Both the position numbers and the translations under genes were made by a program. Below, in pieces: positions 11,694 to 34,602 of a DNA stretch of 64,000 nt. This stretch comes from Bacteroidales bacterium. GTDB lineage: Bacteria; Bacteroidota; Bacteroidia; Bacteroidales; UBA7332. Positions within the stretch are counted from its first letter, which is position 1. Each line of letters starts with the position of its first letter. Below the pieces are notes generated by a model, which was given only the letters and a program-made list of their open reading frames with translations, did not search any database and was not told the DNA's origin. Location: contig CAXXIC010000001.1 in assembly GCA_963668555.2 (NCBI GenBank), positions 1,493,662 through 1,557,661 of the forward strand. The letters run 5' to 3'.

Positions 11694-11863
11694 TTACTAC
11701 AAATTATCAGTTTTTCAATTGTTTATCACGGAATAATATATCAAAATAAAAAGCAATACCTGTTACTCCGTGAATTTTCAGCCTGCAAAGATACGATTTT
11801 TGTTCGGATAAATAATACTATATCAAAACCTTACGCTTTCTTAAGAACAACAGAGCAAAAAAA

Positions 11864-11889
11864 GAGCCTGATTTCCAAAAATCAGGCTC
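11864..11889 (-). terminator. Terminator after mntH
   Basis: GAGCCTGATTT-CCAA-AAATCAGGCTC with an adjacent A7 run (T7 on minus). Confidence 0.8.
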
Positions 11890-11901
11890 CTATATTAATT
11901 T

Positions 11902-13164
11902 TTAACCAAAAAGAGTCAGCAACAATCTCACATTCAGATAGGTAACAATAGCGCCAATGGTCAGCAAGACGCATTTCAGATAAGTCCCGTTGGCATACTG
12001 CCCCATCACCTTTTTGGATGAAGTCAGGTAAATCTGCAAGAAGATGGTGAATGGCAACTGAACACTTAAAGCCATTTGTGAGTAGATCAGTCCTTGAAAC
12101 GGATTCGCGATGAAGAATATAATAATCAGGGCCAAAAACAGCGAAATGTATACGCCCAGACGGCTGTGATTGTCTTTCAGGTCAATAGGCTCGCCGAAGA
12201 ATCCCGCGAAAATTGAGCCACCGGCCATGGCCGAAGTGATTGTCGAAGAGATACCCGAAAGCAAAAGAGCGATAGCAAAAATAAATGCCGAGGCTTTACC
12301 CAACAACGGAATCAACATATCGCGGGCCTGCTGCAATTCAGAAACCTGAACATGATTCTTGAAGAAGACAGCCGCAGCCATAATAATCATCGCACTATTG
12401 ATCGCCCAACCGACTATCATCGAAAAAAGAGTATCGTAGAATTCGTATTTCAGTTGTTTACGAATGACGACATCGTTTTCCAGATTCCATTGACGGCTTT
12501 GGATAATTTCAGAGTGGAGAAAAAGATTGTGTGGCATCACCACTGCGCCCAGCACACTCATCACCACAACCATTGATCCTTCGGGAATACAGGGTGTTAC
12601 CCAACCGATAGCAGCTTCTTTCCAACTGATGTCTGCAATGACCAGCTCGTATATGAATGAAATTCCAATCAAAGAAACAAATCCCACAATCCACTTCTCC
12701 AGCTTACGATAAGAGTTGGAAAAGACGATAAAAAGAATAAGTGCCACCATCATTGCCGATCCCACTTTTACAGGGATATGAAAAAGCATTTGCAGTGCAA
12801 TGGCTCCGCCAAGAATCTCTGCAAGGGAAGTTGAAACCGAAGCCAGCATAGCCGTGCTAATGATAGGACGGGAGATAGCAGGTCGCAGATGTTTATTGGC
12901 CGCTTCACTCAGGCAAAGCCCGGAAGCAATACCAAGGTGAGCCACATTGTGCTGCAGCACGATCAGCATAATGGTCGACAACGAGACCATCCACAACAGG
13001 GTATATCCAAAATCAGAACCGGCAGCCAGGTTTGAAGCCCAGTTGCCGGGATCGATAAATCCGACCGTTACCAAAAGGCCGGGTCCGATATATTTCAGTA
13101 GTTCAAGACCTCCCAAAACGGGCTTGTGGTCTTTTCGCATTAAGTCTTTAAAAAATCCAAACAT
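11902..13164 (-). CDS. mntH: Nramp-family divalent metal (Mn) transporter
   Basis: GFIDPGNW (TM1) and VMPHNLFLHS (TM6) signature motifs. Confidence 0.93.
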   Translation of the reverse strand: MFGFFKDLMRKDHKPVLGGLELLKYIGPGLLVTVGFIDPGNWASNLAAGSDFGYTLLWMVSLSTIMLIVLQHNVAHLGIASGLCLSEAANKHLRPAISRPIISTAMLASVSTSLAEILGGAIALQMLFHIPVKVGSAMMVALILFIVFSNSYRKLEKWIVGFVSLIGISFIYELVIADISWKEAAIGWVTPCIPEGSMVVVMSVLGAVVMPHNLFLHSEIIQSRQWNLENDVVIRKQLKYEFYDTLFSMIVGWAINSAMIIMAAAVFFKNHVQVSELQQARDMLIPLLGKASAFIFAIALLLSGISSTITSAMAGGSIFAGFFGEPIDLKDNHSRLGVYISLFLALIIIFFIANPFQGLIYSQMALSVQLPFTIFLQIYLTSSKKVMGQYANGTYLKCVLLTIGAIVTYLNVRLLLTLFG

Positions 13165-13337
13165 TCAATTTATCAGTTTTACGTTATCGGTTTATATTAT
13201 GACACTTCTCCTTTTCAACTCTTAATTCGCATTATTTACCCTAACTAACAACAAAATCAACCGATTTGTTGAATAACCAGATCTATTGCAACCTGATTTA
13301 TTGAGAATCTACGACAGAAGTCGCATGTATAAAAAAC

Positions 13338-28182: not shown

Positions 28183-28406
28183 GCAACTACTGAAAATTGA
28201 GTTTGGGTTAATGGAATATCGGCTATTCTGGATCTATCTCTTGCTATATCAAACGATTGGCGAATCAAAAGAGCTTTACTATTGGCCTTATGAATCGCAA
28301 CAGAACTACGATCCTATCAAATTCAATGCAAATCTATTAATAAATATCTGGAACTCGAATTTTTATTGATAAGTAATGAGAACTAAATAACATCATATCT
28401 TTAAAA

Positions 28407-28508
28407 AGTTATCAACAGCAATCGAACAATTGTTGATAACTATGTTAAACACTACTACTTCTGCATATTACCAAGATATATAGGATTGATAAATGTAAGT
28501 TATAAACA
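28407..28508. repeat. 102-bp dispersed repeat, copy A, with head-to-head AGTTATCAACA/TGTTGATAACT boxes
   Basis: Gap-free alignment to 34501-34602: 34/37 in the palindromic head, 72/102 overall by manual count. Confidence 0.85.
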
Positions 28509-28584
28509 AATAGATCCAGGGCAAACGCATTAAAAATTCAACTATTACTCACTGTACGAATACCCCAGGGCAGCGATAACCCTT

Positions 28585-28616
28585 TTTGTTATTTCTATTC
28601 GGAATAATTATCTTTG
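28585..28616 (+). promoter_or_regulatory. Canonical Bacteroidetes promoter TTTG-N20-TATCTTTG
   Basis: Both -33 and -7 elements are present, 23 nt before ATG 28640. Confidence 0.7.
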
Positions 28617-28639
28617 TGATTATCAAAACATCAACCTCT

Positions 28640-28870
28640 ATGATGCGCGTTGCAGGAATTACTTTCGAAAAAGACTCACAAGGCGAGAATCGCTTTGTGA
28701 AGATCGATCTGAAAAAACAAGCCGAACGAATCAATCCGATATTAGATGAGATGGGCGCGCTCGAAGCTGATGAGTTCGACAAAGACTAGGAAGATAGTAT
28801 TACCGGAGATGAACTGGTAAATAGAGTTTCTGAGAACATAAGAAACTACTACCGGAATGAGCATCGTTAG
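28640..28870 (+). pseudogene. Small antitoxin-like gene interrupted by an in-frame TAG (28787-28789)
   Basis: Frame continues after TAG as EDSITGDELVNRVSENIRNYYRNEHR to a stop that overlaps the next ATG by 14 nt. TAG is one base from TGG (DKDWE). Confidence 0.55.
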
Positions 28871-29032
28871 GTACGATTCCAGGGTATGCATTATATCTGC
28901 ATCCGATCTCCCAAAAGTAAAAGTCGGATTTCAGCTACCTGGTACATTTTCTTACATCATAAGAAGGATCGCTATTTGATCCGCTATATTACCAACAATC
29001 ATGTTGCCGCTCATCATATTCGCGGATTGTAG
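28857..29032 (+). pseudogene. Truncated, frameshifted partner (toxin-like) gene
   Basis: MSIVRYDS start is in one frame; the C-terminal SATWYIFLHHKKDRYLIRYITNNHVAAHHIRGL is in another frame. Confidence 0.5.
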
Positions 29033-29093
29033 TTTTTGATAATTTTTTCAATCTGTCGACCTGCTCAACTTACATCTATATCTCCTCTTAAAT

Positions 29094-29996
29094 ATGTCAA
29101 ATTTAGAATCCCTGCAACGATACCTACTCCTTATTAAAAAAGTAAGAACCACACCGTATTGTACGAAAGCTGAACTTATTCAATACCTGGATGACCAACT
29201 AGATATTAGTAACGACAAGATTCGTGTACCGTCAGATAGAACGTTTGTCCGAATCATCGGCGAAATCAGAAGTTTTCTGGGAATAAGTATAGAATATTGC
29301 CGGAAAAATAGAGGCTACCATATCCCCGTAGACGAAGAACAAAATTCTATTATTGAGAATATTCTTGAACCGCTTGATTTATTATACGCAATGGTTGGTG
29401 TAGAGAGACTCCCGGAATACGTTTTTGTAGAAAAACGACGATCAAGAGGCACCGAGCATATCCCCGCAATCATGCTTGCCATAAAGGAGAATAAATATAT
29501 CTCATTCCTCTATTCAAAATTTCACCCCGAAGTCACCGACGTAAAAGTGATTCAGTCTATTGCACTGAAAGAAAGTCGGGGCAGGTGGTATCTCTTAGGC
29601 TTTGACAAAAGTGGGGATAAACTCAAATCTTACGGTCTCGATAGGATAAGCAATATGGAAATGCTCGGAGGGGTATTCAAACCCAAGGGAAATATCGACA
29701 TATCCGAAAAGTATGAACATTGTTTTGCTATGTTTACAGGTGACTCCGCTCCCGAAAAGATCATTCTTTCGTTTGATGAAAGAGATGGACATTACGTTGA
29801 AACAATGCTAATCCATCCTTCACAGAATTTATACAAACAAAGCGACCGCGTGATTGTGGAGTTGTATATGTGCATCACCCCGGATCTTATTATGGAACTA
29901 ATGTCTCGCAGTTGGTCTTTGACTGTGATCGAACCTCAATCTCTAAAAGATGAAGTGAACAAGATTTATCGTGAAGCACTTGAACGAAACAGTTAA
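29094..29996 (+). CDS. WYL-domain transcriptional regulator (HTH-WYL-WCX)
   Basis: SDRTFVR..EI HTH, LKESRGRWYLLG, SYGLDRI, and C-terminal HPSQ and VIEPQSL motifs. Confidence 0.95.
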   Translation: MSNLESLQRYLLLIKKVRTTPYCTKAELIQYLDDQLDISNDKIRVPSDRTFVRIIGEIRSFLGISIEYCRKNRGYHIPVDEEQNSIIENILEPLDLLYAMVGVERLPEYVFVEKRRSRGTEHIPAIMLAIKENKYISFLYSKFHPEVTDVKVIQSIALKESRGRWYLLGFDKSGDKLKSYGLDRISNMEMLGGVFKPKGNIDISEKYEHCFAMFTGDSAPEKIILSFDERDGHYVETMLIHPSQNLYKQSDRVIVELYMCITPDLIMELMSRSWSLTVIEPQSLKDEVNKIYREALERNS

Positions 29997-30023
29997 ATCC
30001 AACGTTACGTCTTATATTAATAC

Positions 30024-30073
30024 AGAAAGTGGCTGAAAGTCTGGGATAATCCCCAAATATTCAACCACTTTTT
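30024..30073. terminator. Bidirectional hairpin between WYL and Trp-repeat genes
   Basis: AAAGTGGCTGAA...TTCAACCACTTT arms with an inner GGGAT/ATCCC stem. Confidence 0.6.
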
Positions 30074-30085
30074 TAGTTACAATCC

Positions 30086-30886
30086 TTACAATGTCGCTAA
30101 AAACTCTTCTATCTCGGTCAGTTTTCTATATGGCTTCTGCTCTGCCCGCATCAGTCTTTCCCAAAGATGTGATTCCCGTAAATGCTCTATATCGTCAGTT
30201 GGAATATATTCGTTGAAAAACTCCAACATCTTCTTCGACCATTCTATTTCTGGATTATCTATCAACTTAGCCCAATCCCAATATTCTTTAAATTTACAAA
30301 TCAGTCGAATCTGCCACTTTAGTTTTCTGTTTTCAGACAGAGCGCTCCAATCCAATTGATCTTTAAAAAGCTCCAGTGTTCCAGTATTGAAAAATGGATC
30401 GCAGTATCTGAGAAAGAAACTTTCCGAGAAGATGTTCCAATCGATCTTATCTTGATATTGAACCAGCAACTCTCTACTCCAGGGGAAAAGGATATTCGCC
30501 GATAGCGCTGACCAATCGATCAGACCCGAATAATGCTTTACAATATCGGGAGTAATATTATCATCACCGCAGATCGCTGCCCAATCGAGTTTGACATGAT
30601 ACCTGGCAACGAAATCGACATAGTCGGCATAAGAAATAAAGCCACGGTGAGCAATAATCATGGAAAGATTTTGCCAATCCCAACGCTCCTCGAATAATTC
30701 AATTAACTCGCTCGACCAGGGCAATGAGGTATTACCGGATAACTCCTTCCAGTCAAATCGGTCCTGATTCTCAATCAAAAACTCTTTACTCCAGTTGATT
30801 TCTGTCGACTCTGAAATTCTTTGCCAAAGCTCTTTTTCTTTTTCCGCTTCGAAAATTGCGAAAGCTGTTGTTTGCAATTCTGCCAT
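30086..30886 (-). CDS. Tryptophan-rich ~23-aa repeat protein
   Basis: Recurrent DWxxLSxNxxLxWSxxL unit: DWKELSGNTSLPWSSEL, DWSALSANILFPWSREL, DWSALSENRKLKW, DWAKLIDNPEIEWSKKM. Confidence 0.85.
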   Translation of the reverse strand: MAELQTTAFAIFEAEKEKELWQRISESTEINWSKEFLIENQDRFDWKELSGNTSLPWSSELIELFEERWDWQNLSMIIAHRGFISYADYVDFVARYHVKLDWAAICGDDNITPDIVKHYSGLIDWSALSANILFPWSRELLVQYQDKIDWNIFSESFFLRYCDPFFNTGTLELFKDQLDWSALSENRKLKWQIRLICKFKEYWDWAKLIDNPEIEWSKKMLEFFNEYIPTDDIEHLRESHLWERLMRAEQKPYRKLTEIEEFLATL

Positions 30887-30921
30887 AACTTGTTTCTCCT
30901 CTATTTATCGGTTAATGATAT

Positions 30922-30957
30922 TGCAAAGGTAGAAGGTGGGTATGCCAGAATGTGGCG
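30922..30957 (-). promoter_or_regulatory. Promoter with palindromic operator CGCCA-N5-TGGCA, 11 nt upstream of -7 TACCTTTG
   Basis: Identical geometry to the site at 32346-32381. Confidence 0.7.
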
Positions 30958-30984
30958 GAGTGAAAAAAGAAAGAGAAATAAAAA

Positions 30985-31023
30985 AAGTGACTGCTTTTAG
31001 AACCGTACTAAAAACAGTCACTT
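30985..31023 (-). terminator. Terminator after the 31039-32232 gene
   Basis: AAGTGACTG-CTTTTAG / CTAAAAA-CAGTCACTT arms with an adjacent A run. Confidence 0.75.
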
Positions 31024-31038
31024 ATGCATTAACCGTGT

Positions 31039-32232
31039 TTAATTATTGCTTTTAGAACTATTTAAACTTCTTGGCATAAGCTGAAGTCGTATATTCTTAC
31101 CAACAAGATCTAATTCATTCTTTAGCCCTTGAATGAAAGAATGATCCAATTCTTTTATAATAGCTTTGCTCATTTCCACATTAAACCTGTCTATATCACT
31201 ATATTTTAAATATATAATATCAGAAAGCTCTTGCAATCTAGGTAGATTATCTCTTAACCTCAATAATACCTTATCCATTGATTCCACATGATCTAGTGAG
31301 ACATATCTAACATCAGAAATAAAATCTTTGAATGAATGGAATTCTTCTTCATATTTGAAAAACAATTCAAATTCAGCAGAATCGTTGCCTTTTTTAATAA
31401 AAACGCATCCGTCTTTTACAATAAAGCTACTTATTTGTTTTGTGGATATTATTTCACCATCTTTCGTATAATACTCTATTTTATCAATTTGATTATTACA
31501 CCAATCAGAGAAATGATCTTTATCGATTTGATTAAAAAGTCGAGTAAAGAATGATATTTTGCTTTGCGAGTATCTTTTTCGTTCTTGTGTCTGTAAACGA
31601 AACTGAAATTTCTGGATTAAGGACTGGTTGTCAAATTCTTCAATTAAGTAGTTATACTTTGTCGTTTTGCTTAATCTTTTATTGGCTTTATATTTAGATA
31701 AGGTGTGAACCTCTTCTAAACTTGAAATAATTTCTTCTTGCTGCTTCGGTGAAATATCAGCATTTTTGCAAATAACTTCGTTTTGGTTAGCTATTACATA
31801 GAAAATATACATTTCATTTTGGTTCTTGAAAAATCCACATTCGTAATCAGGATTGATTTCACTATTAATAGTTGAAACAAGTCCTTCTAATGTTAAATTA
31901 TTATCTCCATTTTCATTCCATTGATTCGAAAGATAGATATAATTATGATCTTTTTCAGGAAAGTAATCACTGATGTCAATATTATTAATAAAGCAACGCT
32001 TCCTTAACTCTACTTCTTCTGCCTCTTCTCGAAAAACAGTAAACAAGGCTATATTCCCTATCGATTGAATCTTATATTCAGCCACATGTTTTTTACTTCT
32101 TTCACTGTTCACTTTAATTTTCTGGCTTTCACTTTTTATCAGTTTTTCCAATATTCCATTATTAGCAGCCCACAAAATCACTTTCAATGCAAATCCTTGA
32201 CGTTTGCTATCAGAGATACTTAAGTTGTTCAT
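31039..32232 (-). CDS. AT-rich hypothetical protein with a putative C-terminal HNH (His-Me finger) nuclease motif
   Basis: SLDHVES ... NIRLQLMPRSLNSSKSN resembles the DH...NL.LL...NSSKSN motif of GmrSD/DUF1524-type HNH domains. Confidence 0.6.
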   Translation of the reverse strand: MNNLSISDSKRQGFALKVILWAANNGILEKLIKSESQKIKVNSERSKKHVAEYKIQSIGNIALFTVFREEAEEVELRKRCFINNIDISDYFPEKDHNYIYLSNQWNENGDNNLTLEGLVSTINSEINPDYECGFFKNQNEMYIFYVIANQNEVICKNADISPKQQEEIISSLEEVHTLSKYKANKRLSKTTKYNYLIEEFDNQSLIQKFQFRLQTQERKRYSQSKISFFTRLFNQIDKDHFSDWCNNQIDKIEYYTKDGEIISTKQISSFIVKDGCVFIKKGNDSAEFELFFKYEEEFHSFKDFISDVRYVSLDHVESMDKVLLRLRDNLPRLQELSDIIYLKYSDIDRFNVEMSKAIIKELDHSFIQGLKNELDLVGKNIRLQLMPRSLNSSKSNN

Positions 32233-32345
32233 TGTTATTTATTATTATGTTAATATTAAACGAATCGCAAGTTACCAAAACATTTTAATTCTCTTTGTTT
32301 AAATCCAATTTAATTACCAATCAAAAATCTTGATCCTGATTCTGT

Positions 32346-32381
32346 GGCAAAATTACCCCTTCTCTACGCCAATATATGGCG
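32346..32381 (-). promoter_or_regulatory. Promoter with perfect palindromic operator CGCCA-N5-TGGCG, 11 nt upstream of -7 TAATTTTG
   Basis: Identical geometry to the site at 30922-30957. Confidence 0.7.
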
Positions 32382-32599
32382 ATGTAAAGAATAAAATTTC
32401 AAATAGTGTTCTGAATTAGCTATTATTTCAAACAACAACACAGTTAACTTCCGCCCAATATTCAACACGATTTCTTTTTCCACCTCAAAACATCAATCTC
32501 TAATAGTCTTTATTTTGCACCCTCGCAAACAAAACAAAATCCCGACCCACCCTCCGGCAGATCGGGACTTCCCTTAAAAATCATCAAACAATCCCTACC

Positions 32600-33346
32600 C
32601 TACTTCGCACCCGAAGTATTGGTGGCGCTATTTGATTCCGTCTTCGATGACTTAGGGTGCGGAATACTCAGCACAGACGAATCAAATCGGTCGTTCAGAT
32701 TCTTCTGCAAGGCCACCCAGTCAGGTTGTTTTTCGGTAGAGACAACCATACTGCCCACCCAAAGTTCGTACTCAAGCATATCAGCCTGCAACGCTTCGCG
32801 AATCGGAGCCGTGGCAGCCGCCTCGCGATACTCCAACCGGGAGGTGCGGGCATCACGATAGTATTTCTCCACGATCTGAGCCGACGCCTCAAGTCCGCTT
32901 AGGATATTCTCCATTTTCAGTACAACGATCGCATCGGCATAATCCGGCAGTCGCAATACCTTAAGCGCATTGGCAAGATTTATAATCTGTTCGGGGCGCT
33001 TTTGCTTGCTGTAATTGAAGAGAAACGGCTTCATCCGATTATAAAGAGGTTCAGCAATCGCCTTTTCCGCATCATCGAAAGAGCCAAGCTTTCCCTTTAG
33101 TCCATTCATCACCTTTGCGACCAGGCTGTTACGTTTCAGCATTTCAGCATCACGCATCCGACAGATTTCGTTGTCATTTTCCGTCTGAAGGGCATCATTC
33201 ATGGTTGTCAACCGAAGTACCAGATTTTGGAATCTGGCGTTGTTTTGCACTTCGGGTAAAACCGTTTCTTTCCCATCGTTTACGATCATGCTTGCGCAGT
33301 TTACCAACACGAGGTTGGACATTCTTGATAAAATGTAATTTTTCAT
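32600..33346 (-). CDS. DUF6261-like helical protein
   Basis: 248-aa all-helical ORF resembling Bacteroidetes DUF6261 proteins (recognised by overall pattern, not confirmed); TCCCGA/TCGGGA hairpin downstream at about 32541-32568. Confidence 0.55.
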   Translation of the reverse strand: MKNYILSRMSNLVLVNCASMIVNDGKETVLPEVQNNARFQNLVLRLTTMNDALQTENDNEICRMRDAEMLKRNSLVAKVMNGLKGKLGSFDDAEKAIAEPLYNRMKPFLFNYSKQKRPEQIINLANALKVLRLPDYADAIVVLKMENILSGLEASAQIVEKYYRDARTSRLEYREAAATAPIREALQADMLEYELWVGSMVVSTEKQPDWVALQKNLNDRFDSSVLSIPHPKSSKTESNSATNTSGAK

Positions 33347-33590
33347 TACTGTAAATGTTTAGTAAAAGTTTAGTTCATAAATAATCCTCCATCTTCATTG
33401 TCATAATTAGTTTTTTAATTTGGCATTTCTCACAGCAGATTATTTATCAGGGGCGGAGGTACAGCAGGTGTTGAACACCACCGGCTTGATTTTGCCCTTC
33501 GATAAATAAGTATACTGTGGCGATTTTTGCTTACAGCAGCCTTCCTACCAGACAGGCCAGTGTATATCACTGATTACCTGAGATAAACAG

Positions 33591-33780
33591 CTTTGCTTGG
33601 TTTTCGCAAACGTGTTTCGCTCTTCGGAAAATTGCTTTTGCGATTTTCGCAAACATGATTTTCCGTATGGAAAATGACCTTTGTTTTTTTCGCAATGGCT
33701 ATTTTCTCATAGGAAAATGAGCTTTGCGAATTTTACAAAGGCAGTTCGCAGTAGCGCGAATGACCTTTGCGAAACCCAAA
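33591..33780. repeat. Degenerate tandem array, 43-bp period, about 4.5 units, each made of two short palindromes
   Basis: TTTTCGCAA at 33601, 33644 and 33687; GGAAAA at 33626, 33669 and 33712; TGA ends at 33677, 33720 and 33763. Confidence 0.8.
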
Positions 33781-33968
33781 TACATGCGTTACCGTCCGTT
33801 TTTGGGCTTGCCGATCAATACAGGAACATCCTAAATAAAAAGAAAAGCGCTTCGACAGATTCCCGCGCGTGGCCGATTGTCATACTATCATGTTTTTCAC
33901 ATTATGCGTCATCTCTGTGGGAAGACATTTTCCTCTATTCGGATTCCTTTTCTCAGTAAATGGGGTAT

Positions 33969-34050
33969 AAAATGCTTCGCTAAGCATCTTGGGTGAATAA
34001 CCTAAACCGTTCTTTGATTACCTTAAACAACTAATATAACCTAATGATCT
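33969..34050 (-). ncRNA. Candidate sRNA related to 946-1010
   Basis: Minus strand TATTAGTTGTTTAAGGTAATCAAAGAACGGTTTAGGTTATT, then hairpin AAGATGCTT-AGCG-AAGCATTTT. The -7-like TATATTGCA is imperfect. Confidence 0.35.
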
Positions 34051-34500
34051 GATGCAATATAATGGAATTACTTTAATTTACAATTACATATTTTTACGCT
34101 TATAAGCGATATGCATAATGTTTTTTACCCATCTCATACGCTTTATGCATCGTTTTTGCGTTAATTCGTAAGTTTATACCCGAAGGCCACTTTCAAATTA
34201 AAACATGTAGCTACCCTAAATATACGAATCTGTAAGTTTCAATCAGGTTTCTTTAGTATTGTATTTTCCTTAAAATAACATCATTTTGTTGACAAGTTTT
34301 CTATCATGGAGAATAATCATGAGAAATACCCATTCTTTATCGGAGTGATTGAAGTGTAAAAAGGGAAGATAGTAATAAGAATAGGACAGAGTAAACGGAT
34401 TTTCTTGTAAGTCAATGGTAGCTATATGCGCTAGCAGACAAACACCGAAAAACAGAATGGAGGATTAGAAAAATGAGGGATATGAACACACACCATCTAA

Positions 34501-34602
34501 AGTTATCAACAGCAATCAGACAAGTGTTGATAACTATATTATATCATACATAATCAATGGAATGCCCGGATATATAAACTATAAAAAGGTAAGTTTTGAA
34601 CA
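34501..34602. repeat. 102-bp dispersed repeat, copy B
   Basis: Same orientation as copy A, offset 6094 bp. Confidence 0.85.

Follow-up and report, generated by a model that had tools for sequence, protein, structure and literature searches.

A WYL-domain protein as a candidate DriD/PafBC-type activator of two uncharacterized genes in a Bacteroidales bacterium, with an operator at a fixed distance from the -7 box

In a 64,000-nt stretch of the genome of a Bacteroidales bacterium (assembly GCA_963668555.2, contig CAXXIC010000001.1, positions 1,493,662 to 1,557,661; here called the window), two promoters carry a 15-bp palindrome, YGCCA-N5-TGGCR, where the canonical -33 element would stand, 11 nt upstream of the -7 box. 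A gene for a winged helix-turn-helix (wHTH)-WYL-WCX transcription factor, P0001, adjoins the two genes that these promoters serve, P0002 and P0003. We propose that P0001 is an activator of the DriD/PafBC type, probably triggered by single-stranded DNA (ssDNA), that switches on the two genes as single-gene units, and we give this reading a probability of roughly 0.6. What computation shows here, from the host genome of 5.3 Mb and a comparison set of about 260 genomes, is that these sites are rare, have a fixed spacing, and are linked to WYL genes, and that P0001 is structurally similar to DriD and PafBC.

Results

Two promoters have a palindrome in place of the -33 element

The core of the locus is made up of these features.

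32381-32367, minus strand: operator 2, CGCCATATATTGGCG (CGCCA-TATAT-TGGCG), a perfect palindrome; plus-strand letters CGCCAATATATGGCG; 11 nt upstream of the -7 box
32355-32348, minus strand: -7 box TAATTTTG of the P0003 promoter, 116 nt before the P0003 ATG (32232)
32232-31039, minus strand: P0003, a 397-amino-acid (aa) protein, target 2; N-terminal half poorly conserved, C-terminal domain at about residues 200 to 397
31023-30985, minus strand: hairpin and T-run resembling an intrinsic terminator, after the P0003 stop and before operator 1
30957-30943, minus strand: operator 1, CGCCACATTCTGGCA (CGCCA-CATTC-TGGCA); plus-strand letters TGCCAGAATGTGGCG; at the -33 position, 11 nt upstream of the -7 box
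30942-30932, minus strand: the 11-nt spacer from operator 1 to the -7 box
30931-30924, minus strand: -7 box TACCTTTG of the P0002 promoter, 38 nt before the P0002 ATG (30886)
30886-30086, minus strand: P0002, a 266-aa Trp-rich repeat protein, target 1; conserved partner of this WYL clade
29094-29996, plus strand: P0001, a 300-aa wHTH-WYL-WCX transcription factor, the proposed regulator; convergent with the P0002 gene

The two operators combine TGGCA and TGGCG half-sites with a 5-bp spacer, and members of the wider clade described below use TGTCG, TGACG, or TGGCG. Because the fixed G.CA letters of the palindrome fall 19 to 21 nt upstream of the -7 box, which is the canonical place of the -33 TTTG, they fill those positions and neither target promoter can hold a canonical -33 element. 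An earlier note on this DNA had described two minus-strand promoters of identical architecture in which the palindrome replaces the TTTG. Rereading the sequence confirmed that architecture to the base, and the palindrome letters do exclude TTTG at 19 to 21 nt. The hairpin and T-run between the two genes imply that P0003 and P0002 are separate transcription units, each with its own WYL-type promoter, rather than an operon. A sigma-54 -24/-12 promoter (TGGCA...TTGC) was also considered for these letters and rejected because the spacing and the second element are unsuitable.

The palindrome is rare and its distance to the -7 box is fixed

In the window, YGCCA-N5-TGGCR occurs twice against 0.16 expected, a count reached by 1 of 100 shuffles, and the whole host genome holds 15 occurrences. 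As a gap control, we looked for the 15-mer ahead of every one of the 5761 TAnnTTTG boxes of the host genome, scoring each gap from 0 to 30 nt. Three exact palindromes, and seven when one mismatch was allowed, stood at a gap of 11 nt; no other gap had an exact palindrome, and none had more than one with a single mismatch. Of the 26 palindromes that the relatives have within 7 kb of a WYL gene on either side, 12 were followed at 11 nt by an exact -7 box and another 3 by a box with one or two mismatches. The only other gap found near WYL genes was 18 nt, to a box on the opposite strand of a site that has one at 11 nt as well. Among the imperfect sites that we inspected, the promoter-proximal TGNC core was invariant and the distal half was variable, which is in line with a contact that must stand at a given distance from the -7 box. 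Beyond the letters of the pattern, the WYL-linked sites carried a pyrimidine at position 6 (22/22), T at position 10 (16/22), and T at position 16 (15/22).

The two sites are only 1.4 kb apart, as they might be if the architecture were a coincidence or the relic of a duplicated promoter, with no regulatory role or bound by a factor outside the WYL family. However, the two promoters are without any similarity outside the motif, and a duplicated promoter was rejected on that ground. Judged from the sequences compared, the gap control, the co-location with WYL genes, and the fact that the architecture recurs in unrelated islands, L047 (below) among them, rule out chance as its source. With the WYL gene also the sole neighbor that the loci share, we regard an explanation of this kind as very improbable.

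The composite motif lies near WYL genes in the host and its relatives

The host genome encodes exactly three WYL proteins, and each of the seven composite sites is found no more than about 9 kb from one of their genes. One paralog heads a cluster (G000:C1:4855079-4862674; L034 5079-12674) in which it is followed by genes for a 167-aa protein, an RNase_T exonuclease, a GmrSD_N-DUF7834 protein, and GmrSD. The cluster continues with two genes (194 and 285 aa) of no named family, each behind a WYL-type promoter. The paralog's own promoter in this paralog-headed cluster is TGCAATATTTTGGCA-N11-TATATTTG, and two more sites stand before downstream genes. The other paralog has a divergent pair of sites and a third site nearby, before genes for an IIGP-like GTPase and a tetratricopeptide repeat (TPR) protein, among others.

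All three neighborhoods use YGCCW-N5-TGGCR at the 11-nt spacing, and the recognition helices differ, with RTFVR in P0001 versus RTLHNH and RTFHNH in the two paralogs. Both observations would suit promoters that are served mainly by the other WYL paralogs, or by all three proteins redundantly. This arrangement seems improbable to us, since the left half-sites differ by neighborhood (CGCCA in the window and near the 63% ortholog, YGCCT near one paralog, and TGCAA, TGGTA, and TGCCA near the other) and the sites cluster tightly around each WYL gene.

The generalized pattern YGNCA-N5-TGNCR-N11-TAnnTTTG was scanned in 61 genomes of the same order and gave 34 matches, against 5 for the reversed pattern used as the control. 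WYL genes in these relatives were counted as PF13280 matches (about 68), and their distances to the motif matches were compared by hand. On this comparison, 22 of the 34 matches lay on the same contig as a WYL gene and within 6 kb of it, for an estimated chance expectation of about 0.1. In the phylum sample of 201 genomes, the association between motif and WYL gene held in Bacteroidia (G072, G087, and G138) and in one other lineage (G105). The TGACAC-type matches of family f70 were not linked to WYL genes, and the association is therefore not claimed outside Bacteroidia, apart from G105.

Many f70 genomes (for example, G088:C1:2179152 and G167:C1:1957956) have a near-identical TGACACGATATGACAC-N11-TAACTTTG promoter, once per genome, with no WYL gene near. 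Because its half-sites form a direct repeat rather than a palindrome and no WYL gene lies near, another regulator is likely to act there.

Loci with homologs of the two target genes keep the same arrangement. Trp-repeat orthologs of P0002 are convergent with WYL orthologs in L025 (52%), L037 (57%), and L039 (37%). A genome of the same genus (G002) has a WYL protein 63% identical to P0001, its gene convergent with that of a 52% Trp-repeat ortholog, and there CGCCATCTTTTGACG-N11-TACTTTTG heads an operon that ends in the Trp-repeat gene. The WYL ortholog convergent with the 57% Trp-repeat ortholog of L037 is 65% identical to P0001. In L039 (WYL protein 51%), ACGACGCATTCTGTCTT-N11-TACATTTG stands directly before the gene for the 37% Trp-repeat homolog, and the gene upstream of it has GGACACATTTTGTCC-N11-TACTTTTG. 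For the other target, a 40% P0003 homolog is encoded convergently with a 57% WYL ortholog in L002. In L047, a single WYL gene has five perfect YGACATTATTTGACA-N11-TATnTTTG promoters around it, and one of these stands directly before the gene for P0012, a 37% P0003 homolog. The L047 island places P0012 among genes for PDDEXK, DUF559, HSDR_N, HNH_2, and ADP-ribosylglycohydrolase proteins.

The loci compared have the WYL gene and the promoter grammar in common, with cargo that differs from one to the next. No neighbor other than the WYL gene recurs in all of them, and the gene that accompanies this WYL clade most faithfully is the Trp-repeat gene. In these sequences, the motif is a grammar common to a large clade of Bacteroidia WYL regulators, including the two host paralogs. 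The earlier note had proposed that the adjacent WYL protein controls both promoters, and comparative genomics strongly supports this, both through the WYL linkage counted above (7/7 sites in the host and 22/34 in the relatives) and through the orthologous loci L025, L039, and L047, which keep the architecture before homologs of the two targets. Its picture of a two-gene system stands as regards the shared operator; it does not stand as regards a coherent pair, because the cargo genes occur independently in other loci. The motif, though linked to the WYL gene, is not private to this regulator but is used by the larger clade.

Two further patterns were seen. In G087 (L041-L046) there are seven CGACAYNTTYTGTCG-N11-TAnnTTTG promoters, two at the WYL gene and five dispersed. 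Four of the dispersed promoters precede paralogous operons (a gene for a 525- to 568-aa protein, then one for a protein with an Rhs-like N terminus), and one precedes the gene for an HNH protein, which suggests a genome-wide WYL regulon of conflict genes. In L026, positions 11809-13311 (G043:C1:421809-423311), five repeats of about 60 nt lie 0.6 to 2 kb upstream of a 41% WYL ortholog gene. They end in CGCCAC-GAA(G)-GTGGCA, for example GGTGCCGCCGGGCTGAAAT..CAGGCTTACAGCCTG..CGCCACGAAGTGGCAG, and match the operator pattern with no -7 box. The GCCA-N5-TGGC matches in G043 were rejected as promoters because they belong to this repeat of about 60 nt with its GCCAC-GAA-GTGGC hairpin; the repeats could be a structured RNA, decoy sites, or a mobile repeat.

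P0001 resembles DriD and PafBC more than BrxR and CapW

The open reading frame at 29094-29996 (plus strand) matches the WYL domain (PF13280, 2.6e-9; PADLOC WYL, 1.2e-23) and, at its C terminus, the WCX dimerization domain (PF25583, 5.8e-7), with both Pfam matches over the cut-off, so the WYL gene that the earlier note had placed beside the promoters is there. In an AlphaFold2 (AF2) model of the monomer (pLDDT 83), built on 43 homologs, residues 3 to 76 form an N-terminal winged HTH of three helices and a beta-hairpin. The GRWY and LDRI motifs of the WYL domain are invariant in the 43 homologs. The recognition helix reads SDRTFVRIIGEIR, and its S-x-RT(F/L)-x-R pattern is kept in orthologs.

Foldseek alignments of P0001 to DriD, PafBC, and BrxR were full length (300 to 340 columns). 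Ranks 1 to 15 were all DriD or PafBC, with E values from 5e-13 to 6e-10 and DriD as the best match (5e-13). BrxR and CapW followed from rank 16 with E values from 3e-8 to 1e-5, which is 4 to 5 orders of magnitude worse. A PDB sequence search with P0001 returned PafBC and DriD chains only, PafBC chains on top. A search of the genome contigs with P0001 gave one distant Lewinella match, which was without the motif.

The WYL gene itself is preceded by the following features.

28585-28616, plus strand: probable promoter of the WYL unit, canonical; TTTG at 28585-28588, 20 nt, then TATCTTTG at 28609-28616; no palindrome
28641-29032, plus strand: frame between this promoter and the WYL ATG, with TAG stops at 28787-28789 and 28868-28870 and ending in TAG

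The region 28200-29100 has a single exact plus-strand -7 box, with TTTG 20 nt upstream of it, and this canonical TTTG-N20-TATCTTTG is probably the promoter in use for the WYL gene. No YGNCA-N5-TGNCR within one mismatch was found upstream of that gene. Given a canonical promoter and no palindrome, P0001 is probably made constitutively; DriD and PafBC are likewise present before activation. A Pfam scan of the read-through product of the intervening frame gave nothing significant, and the frame is possibly a decayed small gene or gene pair.

The promoter geometry is that of WYL activators

DriD of Caulobacter crescentus (PMC13004042, PMC10853764, PMC9186387) is a homodimeric activator with the same domain order as P0001 as well as its best structural match. 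Its site is ATACGAC(X)7GTCGTAT, for example CGACA-GTAAC-TGTCG, and its promoters are without a -35 element and place the site at "the identical distance" from the -10 element (PMC13004042). From the printed sequences, we read the DriD probe ATACGACAGTAACTGTCGTAT as CGACA-N5-TGTCG and two promoters as TGTCG-CAATGCGCGGA-CAATCT and TGGCG-CATGGCTCGGC-CAAGGT, with N11 in each (PMC13004042). In the construct with an optimized -35 element, TTGACA lies 17 nt before CAATCT, which makes CAATCT the -10 hexamer and puts the half-site 11 nt away (PMC13004042); this -10 assignment is our reading of the printed promoter sequences, not of the paper's figure. The window promoters and the DriD promoters thus have in common a pseudopalindromic core, a 5-bp spacer (with TGGCG in didA), a site over the -35 place, and 11 nt to the -10 element. 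They differ in that the host belongs to another phylum whose sigma promoter consists of a -7 TAnnTTTG and a -33 TTTG, that P0001 is 15 to 20% identical to DriD, and that the DriD half-site is GAC/GTC as opposed to GCC/GGC in the window (middle base C). The cargo also differs: DriD controls DNA damage genes (didA, bapE, recJ, and dnaG), whereas the window promoters precede two uncharacterized genes in a defense-type island.

In mycobacteria, the PafBC motif tGTCgg(N10)tA(N3)T can be written as TGTCG-N11-TAnnnT; it occurs in promoters with no -35 element, and the mechanism has been named sigma adaptation (PMC8635444). PafBC (PMC8635444, PMC11804915) therefore shares with the window a -26 element, TGTCG, at 11 nt from TAnnnT. 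However, PafBC is a heterodimer in which one HTH reads the DNA at a single half-site, and it controls about 150 genes, whereas the window has one regulator gene, its sites are complete palindromes, and the regulon is small and local. SiwR of Mycobacterium smegmatis, a homodimeric activator of an adjacent two-gene dinB-like operon, resembles the window in its local regulon, and its palindrome lies between the -35 and -10 regions with dependence on the -26 region (PMC10693628). It differs in its palindrome, which is 19 bp long and contains a GGA triplet, in its actinobacterial promoter, and in cargo that belongs to a known superfamily (PMC10693628).

The window architecture, as read from sequence, equals that of DriD and PafBC promoters in its half-site, its spacer, and its distance to the -10 equivalent. 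A literature search found no published description of this WYL-promoter architecture for Bacteroidota.

Activation or repression

The mechanism that we favor would begin with a P0001 homodimer of wHTH-WYL-WCX subunits, its synthesis probably constitutive and driven by the canonical -33/-7 promoter of the WYL gene. The two winged helices of the dimer would bind the 15-bp YGNCA-N5-TGNCR that stands in for the -33 element of the P0003 and P0002 promoters, where exactly 11 nt separate the promoter-proximal half-site from the TA with which the -7 box starts. With ligand bound to the WYL domain, the dimer would engage the operator and recruit the housekeeping RNA polymerase, or adapt it, to weak promoters without a -33 element, and the outcome would be two separate single-gene units switched on. 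By analogy with DriD, PafBC, SiwR, and CapW, the ligand is most likely ssDNA from DNA damage or phage replication. We infer the physical binding of P0001 to the operators, the direction of regulation, the ligand, and the function of the cargo.

Several observations weigh against this mechanism. An operator over the -33 region would serve a repressor too, and the characterized WYL regulators of defense islands, BrxR and CapW, repress (PMC9122601, PMC11662680). For many orthologs and one paralog, the site is found in the regulator's own promoter, as is classic for an autorepressor, although a driD promoter also serves as a DriD target in the DriD study (PMC13004042). The three host paralogs share nearly the same half-sites, which makes the pairing of protein and promoter ambiguous, and the fold ranking was obtained with a predicted monomer model. 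At C1:4861515, the third exact site of the host genome overlaps a hairpin that resembles a terminator, which leaves the role of this site ambiguous, and in L001 a P0003 homolog is encoded without a WYL neighbor and without the motif.

Thus, P0001 could instead be a repressor like BrxR or CapW, which in unstressed cells would sit on the -33-region operator and block RNA polymerase, and which would be released by ssDNA at the WYL domain. BrxR and CapW, which repress BREX, CBASS, and other islands, belong to the same superfamily as P0001, have variable defense cargo nearby, and use inverted repeats 5 bp apart. The locus lies beside a PADLOC defense candidate, and one paralog heads the GmrSD cluster much as BrxR heads its island. 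In the BrxR/CapW layout, the regulator heads its operon or diverges from it and is autoregulated. The L034 paralog and several orthologs have the site in their own promoter; P0001 is encoded convergently with its targets, and no operator precedes its gene. Neither the operator placement nor the box sequence of BrxR and CapW was found here. BrxR boxes are 11-bp repeats with a 5-bp spacer, downstream of the promoter (PMC9122601), and the CapW site is unrelated in sequence to the window motif (PMC11662680), whereas each operator in the window stands at a constant 11 nt ahead of the -7 box. For the BrxR and CapW sites, no set phasing relative to the -10 element is reported, and a repressor does not need nucleotide-exact spacing, yet such spacing occurs in more than 25 promoters of regulators that are 25 to 65% identical. 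In addition, promoters with no room for a canonical -33 element should be weak unaided, and BrxR and CapW are farther than DriD and PafBC from P0001 in both sequence and fold. Given these points, we consider a repressor unlikely, though less so than the other alternatives.

Four features lead us to favor an activator: a spacing that does not vary, a box of the DriD type, the absence of a -33 element, and the structural ranking. The earlier note had suggested an activator that replaces the -33 contact. This is the best fit to the half-site, the spacer, the 11-nt distance, and the fold, all of DriD/PafBC type, and the direction of regulation follows from these features by inference.

The two target proteins

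P0002 contains 16 Trp residues and about nine units of 23 to 25 residues with the form DWxxLSxNxxLxWSxELIxxF. It matches phrog_3532, a family with no assigned function, at 1.5e-18, and weakly matches hypothetical proteins of jumbo phages. It had no match in Pfam, in PADLOC (E of at most 0.01), or among PDB sequences. P0002 is possibly a repeat scaffold or a sensor.

The C-terminal domain of P0003 is common to about 50 distant proteins and was modeled at a pLDDT above 90. R212, R218, and H315 are invariant in it, N391 is nearly so, and the conserved motifs are LDHxxP and LQLMxxxxNxxK. The family is rare, with three matches among 5.8 billion clustered proteins. Searches of P0003 against Pfam, NCBIfam, PHROGs, and PADLOC and by tblastn of phages were all negative, neither P0003 nor 37 relatives had a Pfam match, the family profile had no PDB sequence match, and Foldseek gave no PDB match at an E value below 0.9. 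The model has a strand at 311 to 315, a helical insert of about 65 residues, a strand at 383 to 387, and a helix at 388 to 393. This predicted layout of a strand with His, then a strand and a helix with Asn, is compatible with a split His-Me finger and does not prove one. P0003 is possibly a nuclease-like effector; the label HNH-like that the earlier note gave it is unproven, as no HNH-type profile or fold matched. The same note had held that neither target belongs to a system that can be named, and in keeping with this, P0002 and P0003 are both without a Pfam or PADLOC (E of at most 0.01) match. A Logan contig (L003, ERR12035211_3065508) whose middle is identical to window positions 31290-32540 was left unused; its flanks are unrelated, one side being high in GC, and it is most likely an assembly chimera.

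Surroundings of the locus

The neighboring features are as follows.

28182-27220, minus strand: P0004, a neighbor gene; PADLOC candidate PDC-S42 (PDLC05016, 1.1e-100); outside the proposed regulon
28405-28447: left copy of a direct repeat with a 43-nt core, 91% identical, and weaker similarity over about 100 nt
34499-34541: right copy of the direct repeat, partner of the copy at 28405-28447

The PDC-S42 match of P0004 marks the area as a defense island. Its upstream region was read and contains no palindrome and no WYL-type promoter. The direct repeat brackets a 6.1-kb block (28405-34541) that holds the WYL gene and its targets, and it is found nowhere else in the genome; it contains an internal inverted repeat, GTTATCAACA...TGTTGATAAC. 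No integrase or tRNA gene was found in the block, and Rfam and tRNA scans of the island gave nothing above threshold. Upstream of a DUF6261 gene, window positions 33595-33782 hold a long imperfect inverted repeat and a 43-bp array. The arms of this inverted repeat (33597-33683 and 33693-33779) are 70% complementary, and the sole Rfam match was a spurious plant microRNA (miRNA), far below threshold.

Discussion

Beyond this locus, a large clade of Bacteroidia WYL proteins may use the DriD/PafBC geometry as an ancient mechanism, independent of sigma type, that provides an inducible ON switch for defense and conflict islands; our sequence comparisons leave us evenly divided on this broader claim. 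If it is true, activation by a WYL protein in place of an upstream promoter element would extend to a third phylum with a different promoter code, which bears on the generality and the age of the mechanism. It would also place defense island genes under a WYL activator, whereas the defense-linked WYL regulators described so far repress.

The composite motif is rare, with 0 to 1 chance matches per genome, and it marked operons encoding GmrSD, HNH, AAA+, IIGP-GTPase, and Rhs-like proteins as well as uncharacterized genes, P0002 and P0003 among them. If our reading is correct, YGNCAY-N4-TGNCR-N11-TAnnTTTG would be a searchable tag for undescribed inducible defense genes, including the Trp-repeat and P0003 families, and the motif would lead directly to new inducible conflict genes of Bacteroidia from the gut and the environment.

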